Numbered from the stretch's first letter, positions 17,264-24,311 are shown. The stretch: 64,000 nt of DNA from an uncultured Tenacibaculum sp. (GCA_947504185.1 CANNGJ010000006.1:22797-86796); one strand, 5' to 3'. Notes: generated from the sequence alone by a model not told the origin. A program made the numbers and translations.

Positions 17264-17983
17264 TTACAAAGTCATTGGAACTTCTACTAATAAAACATCG
17301 GAAGTTGTGTTTGCTGTTAGCTTAACTTCAGAAGTCTCCCAAACACCTAAAGCATCTCTCTTATCAAGTATATGCTTATCAATACTAATGTTTCCATCTA
17401 TATTCATTGTATACAGTCCATGATTTTCCGATTTCAAAGTATATTTAAAAGTGTTTCCTTCTGTTAAGATTATTCTGGAAATCTGTGCGTCTTGATGAAT
17501 TTTTAGACTTCCATTCTCTTTTGAATCAACAGGACTTACCAACACTTGTAACGTATCTTTTCTATCAGCTTCTTCAAAATACTTCTGCTCATATTGTGGG
17601 CTTACATTTAATTCATTAGGTACAATCCATAACTGAAAAAAGTTTGCTTTCTCCGTTTTACTATCGTTAAATTCTGAATGTGTTAAACCACTTCCTGCCG
17701 ACATTGCTTGCACTTCTCCTGTAGTAATTGCTTTCTTATTATCCATGCTATCTTTGTGAGACAATGCTCCTGATAACGGAATAGAAATGATCTCCATATT
17801 ATTATGTGGATGCGTTCCAAAACCCATTTTTGGTTCAACATAATCGTCATTAAACACACGAAGTGCTCCAAAACTCATTCTTTCTGGATTATAGTAATTG
17901 GCAAAACTGAATGAATGGTAACTTTCTAACCAACCATGATTTGCATGCCCTCTTGTGTTTGCTTTATGAATTATTGTTTTCAT
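17264..17983 (-). CDS. pirin-family protein (YhhW-like)
   Basis: GFGTHPHNNMEIISIPLSGALSHKDS cupin metal motif; 239 aa. Confidence 0.9.
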   Translation of the reverse strand: MKTIIHKANTRGHANHGWLESYHSFSFANYYNPERMSFGALRVFNDDYVEPKMGFGTHPHNNMEIISIPLSGALSHKDSMDNKKAITTGEVQAMSAGSGLTHSEFNDSKTEKANFFQLWIVPNELNVSPQYEQKYFEEADRKDTLQVLVSPVDSKENGSLKIHQDAQISRIILTEGNTFKYTLKSENHGLYTMNIDGNISIDKHILDKRDALGVWETSEVKLTANTTSDVLLVEVPMTL

Positions 17984-18072: not shown

Positions 18073-18942
18073 CTAGTATAAATAGCCCATTTTACCTTGC
18101 TGAAAATCGCGCATTGCTTCCATAATTTCAGTTTGAGTATTCATTACGTATGGCCCGTATTGAGAAACCTTTTCTTTAATTGGTTCGCCTGAAAGTACTA
18201 ATAAAGTACTCTCTTTTTTGGCTTCAATTTCAACAAAATCTCCATCTTGATTGAAGGTTATCATTTGTGTTGCTCCTTTCTTCAAAGTAGCTTTATCGTT
18301 TACCAATACTTCGCCATCTAATAAATAAATCAACGACTCGTGCGTTTGCGGAATGTCGATTTTCATATTGCCTTCTGTTTGCGTTTTTACCGTAAATACA
18401 TTGACTTCTGTTTGCGTTTGAATCAATCCTTTTTTATTAGCTTGTTTACCTGCAATTACTTTTAAATCTATCGTTTTATCATCGTTTTGTACTACAGGAA
18501 TATCCTCACTCTTTAAATGTTGATAATTTGCAGGCATCATCTTTTTTGCTGCTGGAAGATTTAGCCACAATTGAATTCCTTCTAACTCCCCTCCTCTTTC
18601 TACGAACTCTTTACTTGGTCCTTCTGCGTGAATAATTCCACGTCCTGCGGTTGTCCATTGTACATCGCCTGCTTTTACGAGCATTTCATTTCCTAAAGAG
18701 TCACGATGCAACTGCTCGCCTTTAAACAATAATGTTATTGGTTCAAACCCACGATGTGGGTGCGGCCCTAAATCAAACGGATTGTTAAATGCGCTAATTG
18801 CATACGGTCCGTAATGATGTAATAATAAGAACGGATCAACTTGCTCTATACCTTCTGTTGGTAATGGTTGACGTAATCTTATCGGTCCCATATTTACTAA
18901 TGGGCTTCCTACTTTATTTTTTATGGTTTTTAATGTTTTCAT
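18073..18942 (-). CDS. pirin-family protein (two-cupin, 289 aa)
   Basis: LGPHPHRGFEPITLLFKGEQLHRDSLGN and a C-terminal YGPYVMNTQTEIMEAMRDFQQGKMG. Confidence 0.9.
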   Translation of the reverse strand: MKTLKTIKNKVGSPLVNMGPIRLRQPLPTEGIEQVDPFLLLHHYGPYAISAFNNPFDLGPHPHRGFEPITLLFKGEQLHRDSLGNEMLVKAGDVQWTTAGRGIIHAEGPSKEFVERGGELEGIQLWLNLPAAKKMMPANYQHLKSEDIPVVQNDDKTIDLKVIAGKQANKKGLIQTQTEVNVFTVKTQTEGNMKIDIPQTHESLIYLLDGEVLVNDKATLKKGATQMITFNQDGDFVEIEAKKESTLLVLSGEPIKEKVSQYGPYVMNTQTEIMEAMRDFQQGKMGYLY

Positions 18943-19127
18943 TTTGTTTAAATTTTGTCATTGCGATGGCATCAAATCAATCTTTATATTTTGATTACGC
19001 TCTGTTTACGTTCGCAATGATGTTTTAATATTAATACTCTAGTCTTACCTATCATTCTTTTTTCTGAGAAAGATATATGCTGGGTATTTTTTGTCGTTTA
19101 TATTTCATAATTATTTTTATTTTAAAC

Positions 19128-19149
19128 ATTTTCCATGGAAAATATTTTT
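19128..19149. promoter_or_regulatory. perfect 16-bp palindrome ATTTTCCATGGAAAAT fused to AAAATATTTTT
   Basis: Read directly. Lies between the MarR stop (19193) and the pirin start (18942). It shares both sub-motifs with the sites at 19896-19928 and 23213-23245. Confidence 0.35.
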
Positions 19150-19192
19150 GCAAATTTTTTTGACTCCTATATTTTTATAGGAATCAAAAAAA

Positions 19193-19630
19193 TCATCTTA
19201 TCTTATCTAATAAATCACTTAATTGATTCGCTTCTTCTTCTGAAAGATTGTGAATAAAATCAAAGTCAATATTTCCATCAATTATTTTTAACAATTCTAA
19301 GCCTTGATTTGTTATACTTATATATACCACCCTCCTATCATGATCACATCGTACTCGTTCAATTAGTTTTTTATCACATAGTTTATCCATCAAACGCGTA
19401 GCATTTGGGGCTCTTTCAACCATCCGATCTTTAATAACTTGAACTTTTATTGGTTCTTTAGCTCCTCTTAAAATTCTAAGGATATTATACTGTTGTGGTG
19501 ATATTCCATAAGGCTTAAAAAAATCATTTTCCTTACTAATAATCCAATTTGCCGTATATTTTATGTTGATAAAAGCTTTCACTTTACTGTTTGGGAATGT
19601 TGAATTAATATCTTTAGAAATGTCTCCCAT
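19193..19630 (-). CDS. MarR-family transcriptional regulator
   Basis: Winged-HTH core ISPQQYNILRILRG...IKDRMVERAPNATRLMDKLCDKKLIERVRCDHDRRVVYISIT. Confidence 0.9.
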   Translation of the reverse strand: MGDISKDINSTFPNSKVKAFINIKYTANWIISKENDFFKPYGISPQQYNILRILRGAKEPIKVQVIKDRMVERAPNATRLMDKLCDKKLIERVRCDHDRRVVYISITNQGLELLKIIDGNIDFDFIHNLSEEEANQLSDLLDKIR

Positions 19631-19634
19631 CTTA

Positions 19635-19874
19635 TTAATTTAAGTCTTTCATTATTTTGTTAAACTCATCTGTAGTTGGTGTTAAATACACTTCATCATC
19701 AACAAATAATGTTGGGTATTTTAAAAGGCCTCCATACAGCTCTTTGGAGTGCTCTTTGGCTTCTACATCTACAGATATATCTTTATAATTAAATGGAATT
19801 TCTGCCATTCTTAAATAATTTTTAAAGGCTACTGTATGTGCGTGCCCTTTTCTACCATATATAGTTATCTTCAT
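19635..19874 (-). CDS. glutaredoxin-fold protein lacking cysteines
   Basis: KITIYGRKGHAHTVAFKNYL...YPTLFVDDEVYL follows the Grx beta-alpha-beta layout, but the CxxC position reads GHAH. The 79-aa protein has no Cys at all. Confidence 0.55.
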   Translation of the reverse strand: MKITIYGRKGHAHTVAFKNYLRMAEIPFNYKDISVDVEAKEHSKELYGGLLKYPTLFVDDEVYLTPTTDEFNKIMKDLN

Positions 19875-19895
19875 TTTTTATCTCCTTTCTGAGTA

Positions 19896-19928
19896 CAAAT
19901 TTACGAAAAATATTTTTATTTTCCAAGG
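19896..19928 (-). promoter_or_regulatory. candidate promoter plus operator of the grx-like/MarR operon
   Basis: Plus-strand sequence is CAAATTTA-CG-AAAAATATTTTT-ATTTT-CCAAGG. On the minus strand this gives TTG-N20-TAAATTTG (a TAnnTTTG box) ending 21 nt before the ATG at 19874, with a 12-nt AT palindrome in the spacer. Confidence 0.45.
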
Positions 19929-19983
19929 AAACTATTTTAATAGTAAATATATAAAGAATTAAGAAAATATTATTTAAAGTTGA

Positions 19984-20265
19984 TTAGGCTAAAACATCTG
20001 AATATTCTGACCTCTTGTCAAAAACTGATTTTGCAAACGGACACAACGGAATGGCTTTAATGCCTTTTTCTCGCATAAAGTTTACCGAAGCTGCTACTAA
20101 TTCATAACCAACTCCTTGTCCGCGTAAACTATCTCCTACTTCTGTATGGTCTATAATAATTTTATCATTTCCAGCCCAAGTATAAGTCATTAATGCATTT
20201 TTGCTTCCGTTAACTTCAACGTAAAATTCTCCTTTATTTCCGTTGTCTTCTTGTTGTACTTGCAT
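19984..20265 (-). CDS. small GNAT-type N-acetyltransferase (YjdJ-like)
   Basis: 93 aa. HTEVGDSLRGQGVGYELV...CPFAKSVF is typical of the Acetyltransf_CG family. Confidence 0.75.
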   Translation of the reverse strand: MQVQQEDNGNKGEFYVEVNGSKNALMTYTWAGNDKIIIDHTEVGDSLRGQGVGYELVAASVNFMREKGIKAIPLCPFAKSVFDKRSEYSDVLA

Positions 20266-20269
20266 TTTC

Positions 20270-20701
20270 CTATCCTTTAAATTCTGCTTTTACATGCGCA
20301 CCATCGCAGTAAGGTTTATTTTGCGAAGCTCCACATCTACAAAATGCTGTGGTTTTATTTTTCTTTTCCTCGGTTCCGTCAGAATTCTTTATATGCAGGG
20401 TTCCGTATATTAACAATGGACCATTTTCTAAAGCTTCTACTTCAGTTACAGTATGCATTGACTCTTGATTATCTCCTTTAGATACATAAGATAATGCGCC
20501 AGACGGACAAGCTTCTACTTGTTTTTTTATACAAGCAGTTGTTGCACCCTTCATATTTACCCAAGGCCTGTTTTGTGGATTGAATACTTGCAATAATTCT
20601 TTCCAACATTTCTTCGCATGGATACAAGTATTGGGTTTCCACACTACAGTAAGATCATCATTACTATACTCTTTGATTATTTCTTTTTTTCCGTCTGACA
20701 T
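20270..20701 (-). CDS. divergent 4Fe-4S mono-cluster domain fused to a CDGSH iron-sulfur domain
   Basis: N-domain CIHAKKC...CPSGAL. C-domain CRCGASQNKPYCDGAH, which is the CDGSH signature. Confidence 0.8.
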   Translation of the reverse strand: MSDGKKEIIKEYSNDDLTVVWKPNTCIHAKKCWKELLQVFNPQNRPWVNMKGATTACIKKQVEACPSGALSYVSKGDNQESMHTVTEVEALENGPLLIYGTLHIKNSDGTEEKKNKTTAFCRCGASQNKPYCDGAHVKAEFKG

Positions 20702-20715
20702 AATTTATTTTTTAA

Positions 20716-21246
20716 TTAAATTGATTTTTCGAAAGTCATTACTGCTTCTTTTAACTCTGAGTTTAAAGCATCATCTACTATATTTCCATCTTTAAAGTTA
20801 TCATAAAATTTCGGTAATGAAAAATCAGCAACTATATTTCCTCCCATATGTGGAAATCCATTTTTAGCAATACCTAAAGCTGATGCGCCTCCTCTTCCTC
20901 CTGGTGAAGTAGATAATAATAACATTGGCGTATTACTCCATAATTTTTGCTCAATACGAGACATCCAATCAAAAACATTTTTAAACGCTACTGAAAAATT
21001 ACCATTATGTTCTGCTAACGATAAAACAATTCCATCTGCTGTTTTAATTTCTTCAAAAAATCTTTTTGCGTTTTCTGGAATTCCATTTTCAGTTTCTTCA
21101 TCAATACCATAAACTGGCAATGGAAAATCGTTTAAATCTAATATTGACACTTCAACATTCGTTACTAAATTTGCTGTATGTGTTGCTAATACTTTATTTA
21201 TCGAGTTCTTACTATTACTTCCTGCGAAAGCTATTATTTTTTTCAT
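20716..21246 (-). CDS. NAD(P)H-dependent FMN reductase
   Basis: MKKIIAFAGSNSKNSINK flavodoxin-like start; SLAEHNGNFSVAFKNVFDW. Confidence 0.85.
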   Translation of the reverse strand: MKKIIAFAGSNSKNSINKVLATHTANLVTNVEVSILDLNDFPLPVYGIDEETENGIPENAKRFFEEIKTADGIVLSLAEHNGNFSVAFKNVFDWMSRIEQKLWSNTPMLLLSTSPGGRGGASALGIAKNGFPHMGGNIVADFSLPKFYDNFKDGNIVDDALNSELKEAVMTFEKSI

Positions 21247-21267
21247 TTTATTGTCTAATTATTTATT

Positions 21268-22410
21268 TTATAAATCTGCTAAATACTTAATATCTAGTAT
21301 TCGTTTAAATCTTTTTTGGTAATATGATTGAGGTAAAAACTTTAACATTATATGTAAGAACCTCGTTTGATACTTATTATTTGTAAGCGACATTTTTCCT
21401 ATTTTTAAAGAAGATCTTACTATATACTTAACTTTACCGATTCTCTTTTTTTGATATGCTGCAAAAACTTTTTTCTTAGGATACTTTTTTAAACACATCC
21501 CTAATGTATATGCACTTTCTACTGCTTGGCAAGCCCCTTGTCCTAAATTTGGCGTGGTGGCATGAATTGAATCACCAATAAAGACGGTATTATTGTTAAA
21601 CCATTTTTCTTTATTTGGCTTTAAATCAGATAATTCATTTTGAATTATTTTTTCCTCACTAGTTTTCCTTATCATGTTTAATACAATTTCATCGTACTCT
21701 TTAAAAGTATTTAACAAATAACTTTTTAAAGATTTTGATGGAAATTTTGTATAATTTTTCTCTTCCTGAACTGCTAACCAAAATATTTTATCGGAACTTA
21801 ATGGAAGGAATAAAAAGCGTGAGTCTCCTCCAAATAATTCATAATATGAATGTGCTAAAGTTGCATCAACTTTATAATCTATTATTCCTCTCCAAATAAT
21901 TTGTTGTGCTCTTCTTATTTTAATTTTTGGGAAAATCCATTTTCTAATGACAGAATTAATTCCATCAGAAGCAATTAAAGTTTCAAACTCTTCTTGTGTT
22001 TTATCTTGAAACTCAATTTTAACACGTTCTAAATTTTCTACGTTCTTTACTTCTTTATTTAATTCGTAATCATCTTTTTTTAATTGGCTTGATAATACAT
22101 CTATTAATGAAGCTCTATGAATACAATAAACTTCTTCAGGAAAAGGAATTTCTTTAAGAGTTTTAAGGGTATTTGTGGCTAATATTGTTCTTTTTATTAA
22201 ATACCCTTTTTCTCTTATTTTATTTCCTATGTTTAGTTTATCAAATATTTTTAAAGCATTCGATGAAATTCCAATTCCTGCGCCTACTTCTTTAAATTCA
22301 GTTGATTTTTCAAAAAGTTTAAATGGCACATCATTCCTTTTCAAGGTCAACGCCATTGTTAAACCTCCAATTCCTCCTCCTATTATAGCAATCTTTTTTT
22401 CACTTTTCAT
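21268..22410 (-). CDS. FAD-dependent aromatic-ring monooxygenase (salicylate-hydroxylase-like)
   Basis: IAIIGGGIGGLT dinucleotide motif, ASDGINS, and GDSIHATTPNLGQGACQAVESA. Confidence 0.85.
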   Translation of the reverse strand: MKSEKKIAIIGGGIGGLTMALTLKRNDVPFKLFEKSTEFKEVGAGIGISSNALKIFDKLNIGNKIREKGYLIKRTILATNTLKTLKEIPFPEEVYCIHRASLIDVLSSQLKKDDYELNKEVKNVENLERVKIEFQDKTQEEFETLIASDGINSVIRKWIFPKIKIRRAQQIIWRGIIDYKVDATLAHSYYELFGGDSRFLFLPLSSDKIFWLAVQEEKNYTKFPSKSLKSYLLNTFKEYDEIVLNMIRKTSEEKIIQNELSDLKPNKEKWFNNNTVFIGDSIHATTPNLGQGACQAVESAYTLGMCLKKYPKKKVFAAYQKKRIGKVKYIVRSSLKIGKMSLTNNKYQTRFLHIMLKFLPQSYYQKRFKRILDIKYLADL

Positions 22411-22428
22411 CTTTCAAAACTATATTAA

Positions 22429-22836
22429 CTAATTAATATTCGTTTCAATTTCTGTTTCTCCTTTTACCATTTTGGCTACCGGACATTTTCCTGCAATCTC
22501 TAACAGTTTTGCTTTTTGTTCTTCGGATACCTCCTTTTCAAAAGATATTTCTTCTACTAACGATTTTTTAATTCCTTCAGAAGTTAATTCTTGTTTCTGA
22601 ATCACGTTAACAGTTATCTCACCAAGATCCCAACCTTTTCTTTCCGCATACATACGTAATGTAATAGATACACAACCACCAATCGCAGTTAATAAATACT
22701 CTACTGGAGTAGGTGCATTATCATCTCCTCCTTTATCTAAAGGTTCGTCTATTACCGCAAAATGATTTCTCATTTTAGCTTCTGCCAAATAATTTCGGTC
22801 GGTGAGTTTAACTTCTGAAGTTGGGTTCTTAGCCAT
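22429..22836 (-). CDS. OsmC-family peroxiredoxin-like protein
   Basis: PTPVEYLLTAIGGCVSITL and AGKCPVAKM place the two conserved Cys in the OsmC context. Confidence 0.85.
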   Translation of the reverse strand: MAKNPTSEVKLTDRNYLAEAKMRNHFAVIDEPLDKGGDDNAPTPVEYLLTAIGGCVSITLRMYAERKGWDLGEITVNVIQKQELTSEGIKKSLVEEISFEKEVSEEQKAKLLEIAGKCPVAKMVKGETEIETNIN

Positions 22837-23187
22837 TTATATTTTTTTACTATAAATATAAGAAACAATCGCCAATATTAAAGCTACTAATGCTGGGTAT
22901 TGCTCTCCATCTCCTATCATAAAATGCGCAAAAAAAGCTAGTATAAATGCAAAGACAAAACCTGCATACGCCCATTCTTTCAAAAAAGTATCTTTTAAAA
23001 ACCAAATAGCTATTAAACCTAATATTTTAGCTAAACCATATGGGTAAATTATATAGGTCGGATACCCAAACCCCTCAAACATTTTTGCAACTTCTGAATT
23101 ATTAAAAAAATACATTCCAGCTGAAAATAGCATAAATAAAGTAAGCAAACCTGTTGCTACATAATAAATAATTTTGTCTCGTTTCAT
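22837..23187 (-). CDS. DoxX-like membrane protein
   Basis: 116 aa with four TM helices. Its stop abuts the OsmC start with no gap. Confidence 0.6.
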   Translation of the reverse strand: MKRDKIIYYVATGLLTLFMLFSAGMYFFNNSEVAKMFEGFGYPTYIIYPYGLAKILGLIAIWFLKDTFLKEWAYAGFVFAFILAFFAHFMIGDGEQYPALVALILAIVSYIYSKKI

Positions 23188-23212
23188 TCTTAATTAGTTT
23201 TTAAATTCGGAT

Positions 23213-23245
23213 CAAAGATATAAAAAATATTTTTACATACCATGG
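23213..23245 (-). promoter_or_regulatory. candidate promoter plus operator of the DoxX-OsmC operon (divergent from the MarR-GNAT gene)
   Basis: Plus-strand sequence is CAAAGATA-TA-AAAAATATTTTT-ACATA-CCATGG. Block order and spacing are identical to 19896-19928. The TATCTTTG box ends about 25 nt before the ATG at 23187. Confidence 0.45.
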
Positions 23246-23351
23246 AATATATTTTCTAGGTATATAAATTTATCATTTTTCTATTTTTAAAGATATAGAA
23301 AATATTATATATTTGCATAAGCGCTTATATAAATACATATATAGATATTAA

Positions 23352-24311
23352 ATGGATGCATTAAAAGGTTTTGGAGAAATAGGAATGGGCTCTCGATTAA
23401 AGAGAGTTAGTGAATATATGATGAGAGAAACTCAACTAGTATATAATGAATTTAACATTGATTTTGACCCATACCTCTTCCCTACTTTTAAGATCATTAA
23501 AAATAAAAATGGGGTTACCAATACCGAAATTACAAATAGCTTACATATTTCTCAACCTGCAACTACACAAGCTATCAACAAACTTTTAAAGAAAGAACTG
23601 ATTCTTTTTAAGGAAGATGAAATTGACAAACGTAAAAAAATAATATTCCTTTCAGAAAAAGGTAAAAAGCTTATACAAAATGTAACCCCTATTTGGGATA
23701 GTATAGAACAAATTATAAAAGACTACACCAACATCACATCAAATTCTTTAGTTGAACACTTAAACATTTTAGAAGAAAAATTTAATACCAAAGCTTTTAG
23801 CAAAGCTATCATAGAACATATACAAATGAATAATATAAAAAAACACAGTTTAGAAGTTATCGATTTTAAAAATGAGTATGCTTCTCATTTTTATGATTTA
23901 AATATAGAATGGTTAAAAACCTTTTTTTATGTTGAACCTTACGATGAAGAAGTTTTAAGTAATCCCGACAAATACATTGTAGATAAAGGTGGACATATTT
24001 TTTTTGCAAAGCTAAATAACGAAATTGTGGGTACAGTAGCATTGATGCCTATGAAAGAAAAGAATGTTTACGAACTAACTAAAATGGCCGTTTCCCCTAA
24101 ACATAGAGGTTATAAAATTGGACAGCAATTAATGCAAAAATGTATTGACTTTGCAAAAAATAATCGTTTTGACAAGCTTGTTTTGTATTCGAGTACAAAG
24201 CTTGAAAATGCTATTTACATTTATAGAAAATACGGTTTTATAGAAATTCCAGTTGAAGAAAATTGTCCTTATGTTAGAAGTGATATTAAAATGGAGTTAT
24301 CTACCAATTAA
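23352..24311 (+). CDS. bifunctional MarR-type HTH regulator / GNAT N-acetyltransferase
   Basis: N-terminal wHTH (TNSLHISQPATTQAINKLLKKELI...DKRKKIIFLSEKG). C-terminal GNAT (VGTVALMP...VSPKHRGYKIGQQLM...YRKYGF). Confidence 0.8.
   Translation: MDALKGFGEIGMGSRLKRVSEYMMRETQLVYNEFNIDFDPYLFPTFKIIKNKNGVTNTEITNSLHISQPATTQAINKLLKKELILFKEDEIDKRKKIIFLSEKGKKLIQNVTPIWDSIEQIIKDYTNITSNSLVEHLNILEEKFNTKAFSKAIIEHIQMNNIKKHSLEVIDFKNEYASHFYDLNIEWLKTFFYVEPYDEEVLSNPDKYIVDKGGHIFFAKLNNEIVGTVALMPMKEKNVYELTKMAVSPKHRGYKIGQQLMQKCIDFAKNNRFDKLVLYSSTKLENAIYIYRKYGFIEIPVEENCPYVRSDIKMELSTN

Follow-up and report, generated by a model that had tools for sequence, protein, structure and literature searches.

A conserved palindromic dyad fused to the -33/-7 promoters of a gene island in Tenacibaculum and other Flavobacteriaceae: a candidate MarR operator

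Two neighbouring operons in the genome of an uncultured Tenacibaculum sp. begin with closely similar promoter sequences, which raises the question of what this shared element is and which protein might recognize it. The window analysed here is a 64,000-nucleotide (nt) stretch of DNA (GCA_947504185.1, CANNGJ010000006.1:22797-86796). One operon consists of a glutaredoxin-like gene and a marR gene (grx-marR), and the other starts with doxX. Direct reading of the window places CAAATTTACGAAAAATATTTTTATTTTCCAAGG on the plus strand at 19896-19928 and CAAAGATATAAAAAATATTTTTACATACCATGG on the plus strand at 23213-23245, with 25 of 33 positions identical. An earlier note, made from the sequence of the window, had described both 33-mers at these coordinates and with this degree of matching, and our reading agrees with it. 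It interpreted them as a promoter/operator module common to the two operons, with the spacer palindrome AAAAATATTTTT as the binding site of a MarR-type protein. We propose a modified interpretation, which we regard as probable: each 33-mer would be one case of a MarR promoter-operator module conserved across the Flavobacteriaceae, in which a MarR protein of 145 amino acids (aa) represses transcription by occluding the -33 element.

The 12-mer AAAAATATTTTT, taken alone, is unremarkable in a genome of 31% G+C. Three copies are present in the window (0.39 expected from shuffled sequences); the 2.99-Mb assembly has 19, close to the 20.6 that an order-3 model predicts. The rare part is the composite. 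Throughout the assembly, matches to CCWWGG-N5-AAAAATATTTTT and to AAAAATATTTTT-N1-4-TAnnTTTG were restricted to the two sites, which upholds the view that the two operons share one module. The pattern TWCCNNGGWA-N12-18-TANNTTTG matched three places in the genome – the promoters of grx-marR, doxX and a yceI-like gene – and its reversed control matched none. The possibility, raised in the earlier note, that the 33-mer is a generic strong promoter found upstream of unrelated genes was thus not borne out genome-wide. CCWWGG as a restriction-type site was also considered and set aside, CCATGG and CCAAGG being common across the genome.

The conserved element was located by aligning, on the minus strand, three sites of the window with the regions around MarR orthologues from 19 related genomes. 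This analysis revealed an 18-base-pair (bp) dyad, TATWTTCCWWGGAAWATA (roughly TATWTTCC-WW-GGAAWATA), followed by a TAnnTTTG box. The centre of the dyad falls on the CCAWGG block, which had previously been described as the -33 block. A symmetrised 26-nt position weight matrix (PWM), built from the sites of same-genus relatives, gave 11 matches above 12 bits in the assembly. The top five include three sites of the window (O1-O3) and the promoter of the yceI-like gene (22.5 bits). The principal features of the window are as follows:

19917-19934, minus strand: candidate operator O1 in the grx-marR promoter, TAGTTTCCTTGGAAAATA; centre CCTTGG at 19928-19923, overlapping the -33 TTG; 26.4 bits, genome rank 2
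19896-19903, minus strand: grx-marR promoter, -7 box TAAATTTG; 19 nt downstream of the operator GG
23234-23251, minus strand: candidate operator O2 in the doxX operon promoter, TATATTCCATGGTATGTA; centre CCATGG at 23245-23240; 17.7 bits
23213-23220, minus strand: doxX operon promoter, -7 box TATCTTTG; 19 nt downstream of the operator GG
23249-23266, minus strand: candidate auxiliary operator copy, TATATACCTAGAAAATAT; centre 15 bp upstream of O2
19127-19144, minus strand: candidate operator O3 between marR and a pirin gene; best PWM match in the genome, 26.7 bits
19193-19630, minus strand: MarR-family regulator of 145 aa, a plain MarR protein (Pfam MarR and MarR_2)

O3 holds a perfect 16-bp palindrome, ATTTTCCATGGAAAAT (19128-19143), located 49 nt past the marR stop codon, and its sequence TTCCATGGAA occurs only once in the genome. 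The yceI-like site lies on another contig (C22:4953), 33 nt upstream of a lipoprotein gene with a YceI domain, and has the same layout as the window promoters, TTCCGTGGAA-N13-TACATTTG (contig C22:4940-4970, minus strand). The spacing at this promoter is shorter than at the window sites (GG-N15-TACATTTG). The yceI promoters of relatives (loci L139-L144) carry two dyads 29 bp apart, the downstream copy abutting the -7 box; in the present genome this downstream copy is decayed. The consensus of doxX-class promoters, ttTtCCttGaAAaTATtTTCCATGG / ttTtCCttGaAA, likewise includes a second copy 15 bp upstream of the first. CC..G is strongly conserved at this -15 position, where the commonest words are CCTAGA, CCTTGG and CCTTGA. 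The auxiliary copy of the window scores below the 12-bit threshold. The PWM matches at C33:752, at C7:73109 and on contigs C14 and C15 lie within open reading frames (ORFs) and have no -7 box, as does a recurrent match, GGTATTCCWTGGAAAGG, inside an ORF of 563 aa; these were attributed to chance or coding conservation.

Sigma-A promoters of the Bacteroidota are composed of a -33 TTTG and a -7 TAnnTTTG element with a spacer of about 19 nt. This promoter type was reportedly defined in Bacteroides fragilis and for the ompA promoter of Flavobacterium johnsoniae. In both window promoters a -7 box of the TAnnTTTG type follows the -33 element (TTG, or ATG at the doxX promoter) at about 19-20 nt, and the ends of TAAATTTG and TATCTTTG are 21-25 nt from the respective ATG codons (19874 and 23187). 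Among 114 orthologous promoters, 75 have TAnnTTTG 19 nt after the GG and 11 have it 20 nt after (86 of 114 together). At promoter-type sites (n = 110) the dyad centre nearly always presents TG in the direction of transcription (CCTTGG 76, CCATGG 29, CCTAGG 3, CCAAGG 1), while no bias is seen at the marR-pirin site (CCATGG 15, CCAAGG 11, CCTTGG 10). A symmetric protein-binding site would accept AA as well as TT, and the preference seen at promoters therefore betrays an overlapping -33 TTG; it also indicates that the block is more than a -33 element. The fixed spacing in orthologues, together with a central dinucleotide (TTG/ATG) that is orientation-locked at promoter sites only, supports the -33/-7 assignment, and the layout put forward in the earlier note is in this respect borne out. 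According to the known geometry of Bacteroidota promoters, the dyad would cover about -42 to -25. A scan for sigma-70 promoters gave 29 matches (34 expected) and is uninformative for Bacteroidota.

The coincidence of the motif with the -33 position and its fixed distance to the -7 box could also mean that it is an extended -33 promoter element, or a -35-like element of an alternative sigma factor, rather than a repressor site. We consider this extremely improbable. The motif has two-fold symmetry with both arms conserved, and conserved copies are found away from the -33 position, i.e. in the marR-pirin gap, 15 bp upstream of O2 and abutting the yceI -7 box. Moreover, the central dinucleotide has no orientation bias at non-promoter copies. 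Copies in such places speak for recognition by a dimeric DNA-binding protein and not by a sigma factor.

If a dimeric protein reads the CCWWGG dyad, its binding site differs from the one first suggested. In the earlier note the operator was the AAAAATATTTTT palindrome in the spacer, and CCAWGG was merely the -33 element. The two spacer copies are:

19906-19917, no strand: spacer 12-mer AAAAATATTTTT of promoter 1 (grx-marR), A/T-rich, its palindrome not conserved
23223-23234, no strand: spacer 12-mer AAAAATATTTTT of promoter 2 (doxX), A/T-rich spacer

AAAAATATTTTT is indeed an exact 12-nt palindrome at an equal offset in both promoters, and it recurs exactly in the doxX promoters of seven close relatives (including L051, L052, L054, L055, L062 and L066). 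However, it is exact in only 8 of the 114 orthologous promoters and has at most one mismatch in 18; most copies have two to four mismatches. Dyad symmetry at the offset of the 12-mer averages 3 of 6 pairs, which equals chance for a sequence of A and T only, and the genomic frequency of the 12-mer matches expectation, as given above. The O3 site and the yceI promoter lack AAAAATATTTTT yet keep the CCWWGG dyad, both arms of which are kept across genera. The spacer consensus of the orthologues reads AAAATAAA..T.tTTTTtG. Outside the present genome, exact AAAAATATTTTT was seen at doxX promoters of the nearest relatives only, as common descent would predict. A MarR operator in the spacer is therefore highly improbable, and the A/T-rich stretch between -33 and -7 is best regarded as only a spacer, which happens to read AAAAATATTTTT here.

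The distribution of the dyad was compared with that of marR. Eighty loci from Tenacibaculum, Polaribacter and allied genomes (934 kb) were retrieved with the 145-aa MarR protein (74-92% identity, the closest match being a Tenacibaculum). They contain 181 PWM matches above 13 bits, nearly all of which lie upstream of the doxX/osmC/FMN reductase operon, upstream of grx/marR or in the marR-pirin gap. The dyad precedes grx or marR in 48 loci, is located upstream of the doxX, osmC or FMN reductase operon in 65, and separates marR from pirin in 42. The source loci of the PWM overlap this set, so the enrichment within it is partly circular, and the pattern test in other genera provides the independent check.

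This survey covered one genome from each of 150 other genera of the family. MarR orthologues were defined as full-length proteins of at least 52% identity, a clear gap separating them from paralogues (at most 50%), and were found in 63 genera. The strict module, TTCCWWGGWAWWTA-N10-14-TANNTTTG, gave 44 matches in 151 genomes (the 150 and the present one) and none in the reversed control. It occurs in 40 of the 63 orthologue-bearing genera versus 2 of the 87 others (Fisher p = 1.2e-17, the present genome left out), and in all 40 it lies on the same contig as marR, at a distance of 0.6-1.6 kb. In the 20 other genera that were mapped, the usual arrangement is a dyad ahead of a (doxX)-FMN reductase-...-marR operon, i.e. 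at the promoter of an operon ending in marR. About eight of these genera have a second dyad between marR and the next gene, which is mostly pirin. Two features of MarR repressor/operator systems – a winged-helix gene within the cluster and a dyad of 18 bp over the promoter of its own operon – are both found here.

Further information comes from paralogous regulators. Paralogous MarR proteins of 44-47% identity (L131, L132, L165), encoded beside doxX or pirin, have TATTTTACATGTAAAATA in their own promoters, and a MarR-YceI clade (L167-L183) has tandem copies of TTGTATATACAA over the -7 box. The recognition helix reads RLM, RLS/T or RLV, depending on the class. Such a correlated change of MarR class and dyad is the pattern expected if each MarR protein reads the adjacent dyad. 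The paralogous clades of the family look like a small group of related repressors whose operators have diverged.

The dyad might instead be bound by an unlinked dimeric transcription factor, with the proximity of marR reflecting no more than a shared stress island. Other potential regulators are encoded in the island, a co-regulator role has sometimes been ascribed to pirins, and the pairing of the dyad with a candidate MarR comes entirely from sequence comparison. We find this explanation unlikely in view of the tight linkage (in all 40 genera concerned, the module is no more than 1.6 kb from marR) and its near absence from genomes without an orthologue. In addition, a dyad at the promoter of marR's own operon is the usual autoregulatory arrangement, and the operator variant shifts with the MarR clade. 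The 145-aa MarR is thus the best candidate for the predicted binder of the dyad.

A second MarR-type protein is encoded close to the doxX promoter, and the earlier note had treated the two proteins as equivalent candidates. It had identified both correctly, since each has a MarR domain above the Pfam cut-off (for the 145-aa protein, PF01047 with 37.2 bits against a cut-off of 24.6 and PF12802 with 38.3 bits against 27). The features in question are:

23352-24311, plus strand: MarR-GNAT fusion protein, divergent from the doxX operon (Pfam)
23310-23335, plus strand: near-perfect 26-bp palindrome TATTTGCATAAGC/GCTTATATAAATA, with the core ATAAGCGCTTAT at 23317-23328

Its MarR domain and its divergent position relative to the doxX promoter region make the fusion protein a conceivable reader of the CCWWGG dyad. 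Nevertheless, the equal standing of the two proteins was not retained, and we judge it very unlikely that MarR-GNAT, and not the 145-aa MarR, binds this site. MarR-GNAT is missing from 41 of the 80 related loci, which nevertheless retain the CCWWGG operator. Thirty-three loci have the doxX-type operator with no MarR-GNAT in the fetched flank (32 loci have both), and no MarR-GNAT is labelled in the 20 loci from other genera. Furthermore, a distinct palindrome, ATAAGYRCTTAT, tracks the fusion gene: of the 39 loci that have MarR-GNAT, 26 contain the core within 120 nt of the start of the gene, as against none of the 41 loci that lack it, and ATAAGCGCTTAT occurs once in the present genome. The 26-bp palindrome abuts a plus-strand -7 box, TATATTTG (23308-23315), 17 nt before the ATG of MarR-GNAT. 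It is probably the autoregulatory operator of MarR-GNAT itself, which is probably a separate regulator. An 8-nt inverted repeat, TTTTCTAT-N10-ATAGAAAA (23277-23302, plus strand), was also distinguished between the divergent promoters and may have arisen by chance in A/T-rich DNA. Some relatives have a different inverted repeat, TTTTATC...GATAAAA, between these promoters.

With the 145-aa MarR as the preferred regulator, the following mechanism can be envisaged. A MarR dimer (19193-19630) would bind the dyad and block access of RNA polymerase to the -33 element, which would be the TTG of CCTTGG or the ATG of CCATGG. In this way MarR may repress its own grx-marR operon (autoregulation), the doxX-osmC-monooxygenase-FMN reductase-CDGSH-GNAT operon, through two copies 15 bp apart, and the yceI-like gene on the other contig. 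An inducer would release the dimer, and its signal might act on residues Cys85/Cys95 or arrive as a ligand. We hypothesize that the third copy, O3, controls pirin, either as an operator downstream of a weak promoter, whose start site it may cover, or as a roadblock that stops transcription reading through from grx-marR.

The region between marR and pirin has several further features. In many relatives the pirin ATG is located about 31 nt past the dyad centre. Here, a micro-ORF of 57 nt and 18 codons (MKYKRQKIPSIYLSQKKE; 19108-19052, minus strand) starts 27 nt past the centre of O3, and pirin starts approximately 110 nt after the micro-ORF, behind a strongly folding leader. The ATG of the micro-ORF is part of TAATTATG, at precisely the position expected of a -7 box. 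Nine of the 80 related loci encode similar peptides (M..[YH]K[KR][QL]K[IV]P[SN]..F..) at this same place, and none of the loci has one anywhere else. The third position of the Pro codon varies (CCC, CCT, CCA, CCG), which suggests that the micro-ORF is translated. The predicted fold of the marR-pirin intergenic RNA has a free energy of -47.3 kcal/mol (z = -4.9). It includes a 17-bp U7...A7 hairpin directly after the marR stop codon (19155-19192, minus strand). Immediately upstream of the pirin ATG it has a further, long hairpin, CAUUGCGA...UCGCAAUG (18950-19020, minus strand). Neither hairpin is repeated elsewhere in the genome, and an Rfam search of 18800-20100 gave no match at E values up to 1. 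An internal pirin promoter upstream of O3 was also sought: the conserved AAAAAATTT(G/A) found there lacks the TA of TAnnTTTG, and no -33 element is present at the right distance. In four Polaribacter loci (L084, L089, L111, L115) a recurring insert of about 100-200 nt with GTCAGTTCGAGTGATTT... separates the operator from pirin and looks like a small repeated or mobile element.

Several observations weigh against the proposed role of the dyad and the 145-aa MarR. O2 is a weak PWM match, with the right arm GGTATGTA. At O3, no canonical -7 box for pirin is present at the right place, which is occupied by the start codon of the micro-ORF. Among the 63 orthologue-bearing genera, 23 have no match to the strict pattern, although several of them contain looser versions, and two of the loci mapped in other genera (L162, L164) have no PWM match. 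The best match in a PDB search was an uncharacterised MarR protein (3u2r), and no characterised homologue was found that would fix the ligand. Finally, no NCBIfam equivalog reached its cut-off (HpaR, TIGR02337, 48.8 versus 121.2 bits; OhrR, 27.2 versus 200; MarR, 31 versus 240). With these scores, identities as HpaR and OhrR were rejected; the cysteines of the protein, at positions 85 and 95 only, also do not include the N-terminal sensing Cys of OhrR. An identity as YodB, CatR or QsrR (HxlR/DUF24) was likewise discarded, as the Pfam matches contained only MarR-type families and no HxlR family.

The genes of the island, assigned on the basis of ORFs and Pfam matches, suggest what the predicted regulon might respond to. 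Besides marR and the MarR-GNAT gene, they are:

19635-19874, minus strand: glutaredoxin-fold protein (Pfam Glutaredoxin), first gene of the grx-marR operon
19984-23187, minus strand: six-gene operon behind O2, composed of the next six genes
22837-23187, minus strand: DoxX
22429-22836, minus strand: OsmC
21268-22410, minus strand: FAD monooxygenase
20716-21246, minus strand: NADPH-dependent FMN reductase
20270-20701, minus strand: Fer4_19/CDGSH iron-sulfur protein
19984-20265, minus strand: small GNAT protein
18073-18942, minus strand: pirin, downstream of O3
17264-17983: second pirin, of the quercetinase type, following the first

A terminator scan detected no terminator-like site inside the doxX operon. 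The translation of 19635-19874 contains no Cys, with GHAH in place of CxxC, and thus the glutaredoxin-fold protein cannot be a thiol-disulfide oxidoreductase. The gene content (DoxX, OsmC, flavin monooxygenase, FMN reductase, CDGSH, two pirins and YceI) points to quinone, electrophile or phenolic stress. Two cysteines of the 145-aa MarR are conserved among 101 orthologues: Cys85, where the recognition helix ends, in 89% and Cys95, in the first wing strand, in 93%. A thiol switch in the DNA-binding domain is a plausible hypothesis. A more far-reaching proposal – a so far undescribed thiol- or quinone-sensing MarR regulon across the Flavobacteriaceae, with a dyad built into the -33 element whose orientation-locked centre doubles as the TTG, a Cys85/Cys95 switch, and an O3 roadblock uncoupling basal MarR synthesis from pirin – is offered tentatively, as a possibility that we consider rather doubtful in its full form.

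The Flavobacteriaceae include marine algal degraders and the fish-associated Tenacibaculum, and few transcription-factor sites are known in these bacteria. The present analysis supplies a defined operator motif, a predicted regulon and a candidate regulator for a stress module found in about 40% of the sampled Flavobacteriaceae genera, as well as a comparative example in which a putative repressor site is combined with the unusual Bacteroidota promoter of the -33/-7 type. The corrected assignment of the operator matters for the design of probes for electrophoretic mobility shift assays, or of inducible promoters, in this group. No description of the regulator or of the motif was found in the literature searched, the coverage of which was incomplete, so this does not prove their absence from it. 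The module does not reveal a new type of mechanism: it appears to be a MarR operator-promoter module of the ordinary kind, and what is new is its sequence, the clade of its regulator and its distribution across the family.

Many MarR-family proteins, such as E. coli MarR (acting at marO), MexR, OhrR and HucR, are autoregulated repressors with palindromic operators over promoter elements. The system described here resembles them in having a small winged helix-turn-helix MarR gene within the cluster that it putatively regulates, a dyad of 16-20 bp overlapping the promoter of its own operon, tandem sites, and a small predicted regulon of stress and detoxification genes. It differs in that its operator sequence, TATWTTCCWWGGAAWATA, is unrelated to theirs and is fused to -33/-7 instead of -35/-10 elements.

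Quinone and electrophile regulons have been described in Firmicutes: those of B. subtilis MhqR (MarR type), YodB and CatR (MarR/DUF24, i.e. HxlR type), and of S. aureus QsrR and MhqR. MhqP and CatD of these regulons are DoxX-like, and YodB and QsrR sense through N-terminal cysteines. By analogy, the predicted Tenacibaculum regulon resembles them in combining DoxX-like membrane oxidoreductases, NAD(P)H-dependent flavin/quinone reductases and ring-modifying oxygenases with a repressor encoded alongside. It belongs to another phylum and its operators are unrelated. Unlike YodB and QsrR, the regulator is a classical MarR and not an HxlR/DUF24 protein, and its conserved cysteines, Cys85 and Cys95, are located in the recognition helix and the wing. 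In comparison with ordinary Bacteroidota sigma-A promoters, the window promoters share the TTG-N20-TAnnTTTG layout, 21-25 nt before the ATG codons. They are distinguished by a -33 element that is embedded in a putative repressor dyad and that, at the doxX promoter, is often ATG and not TTG.

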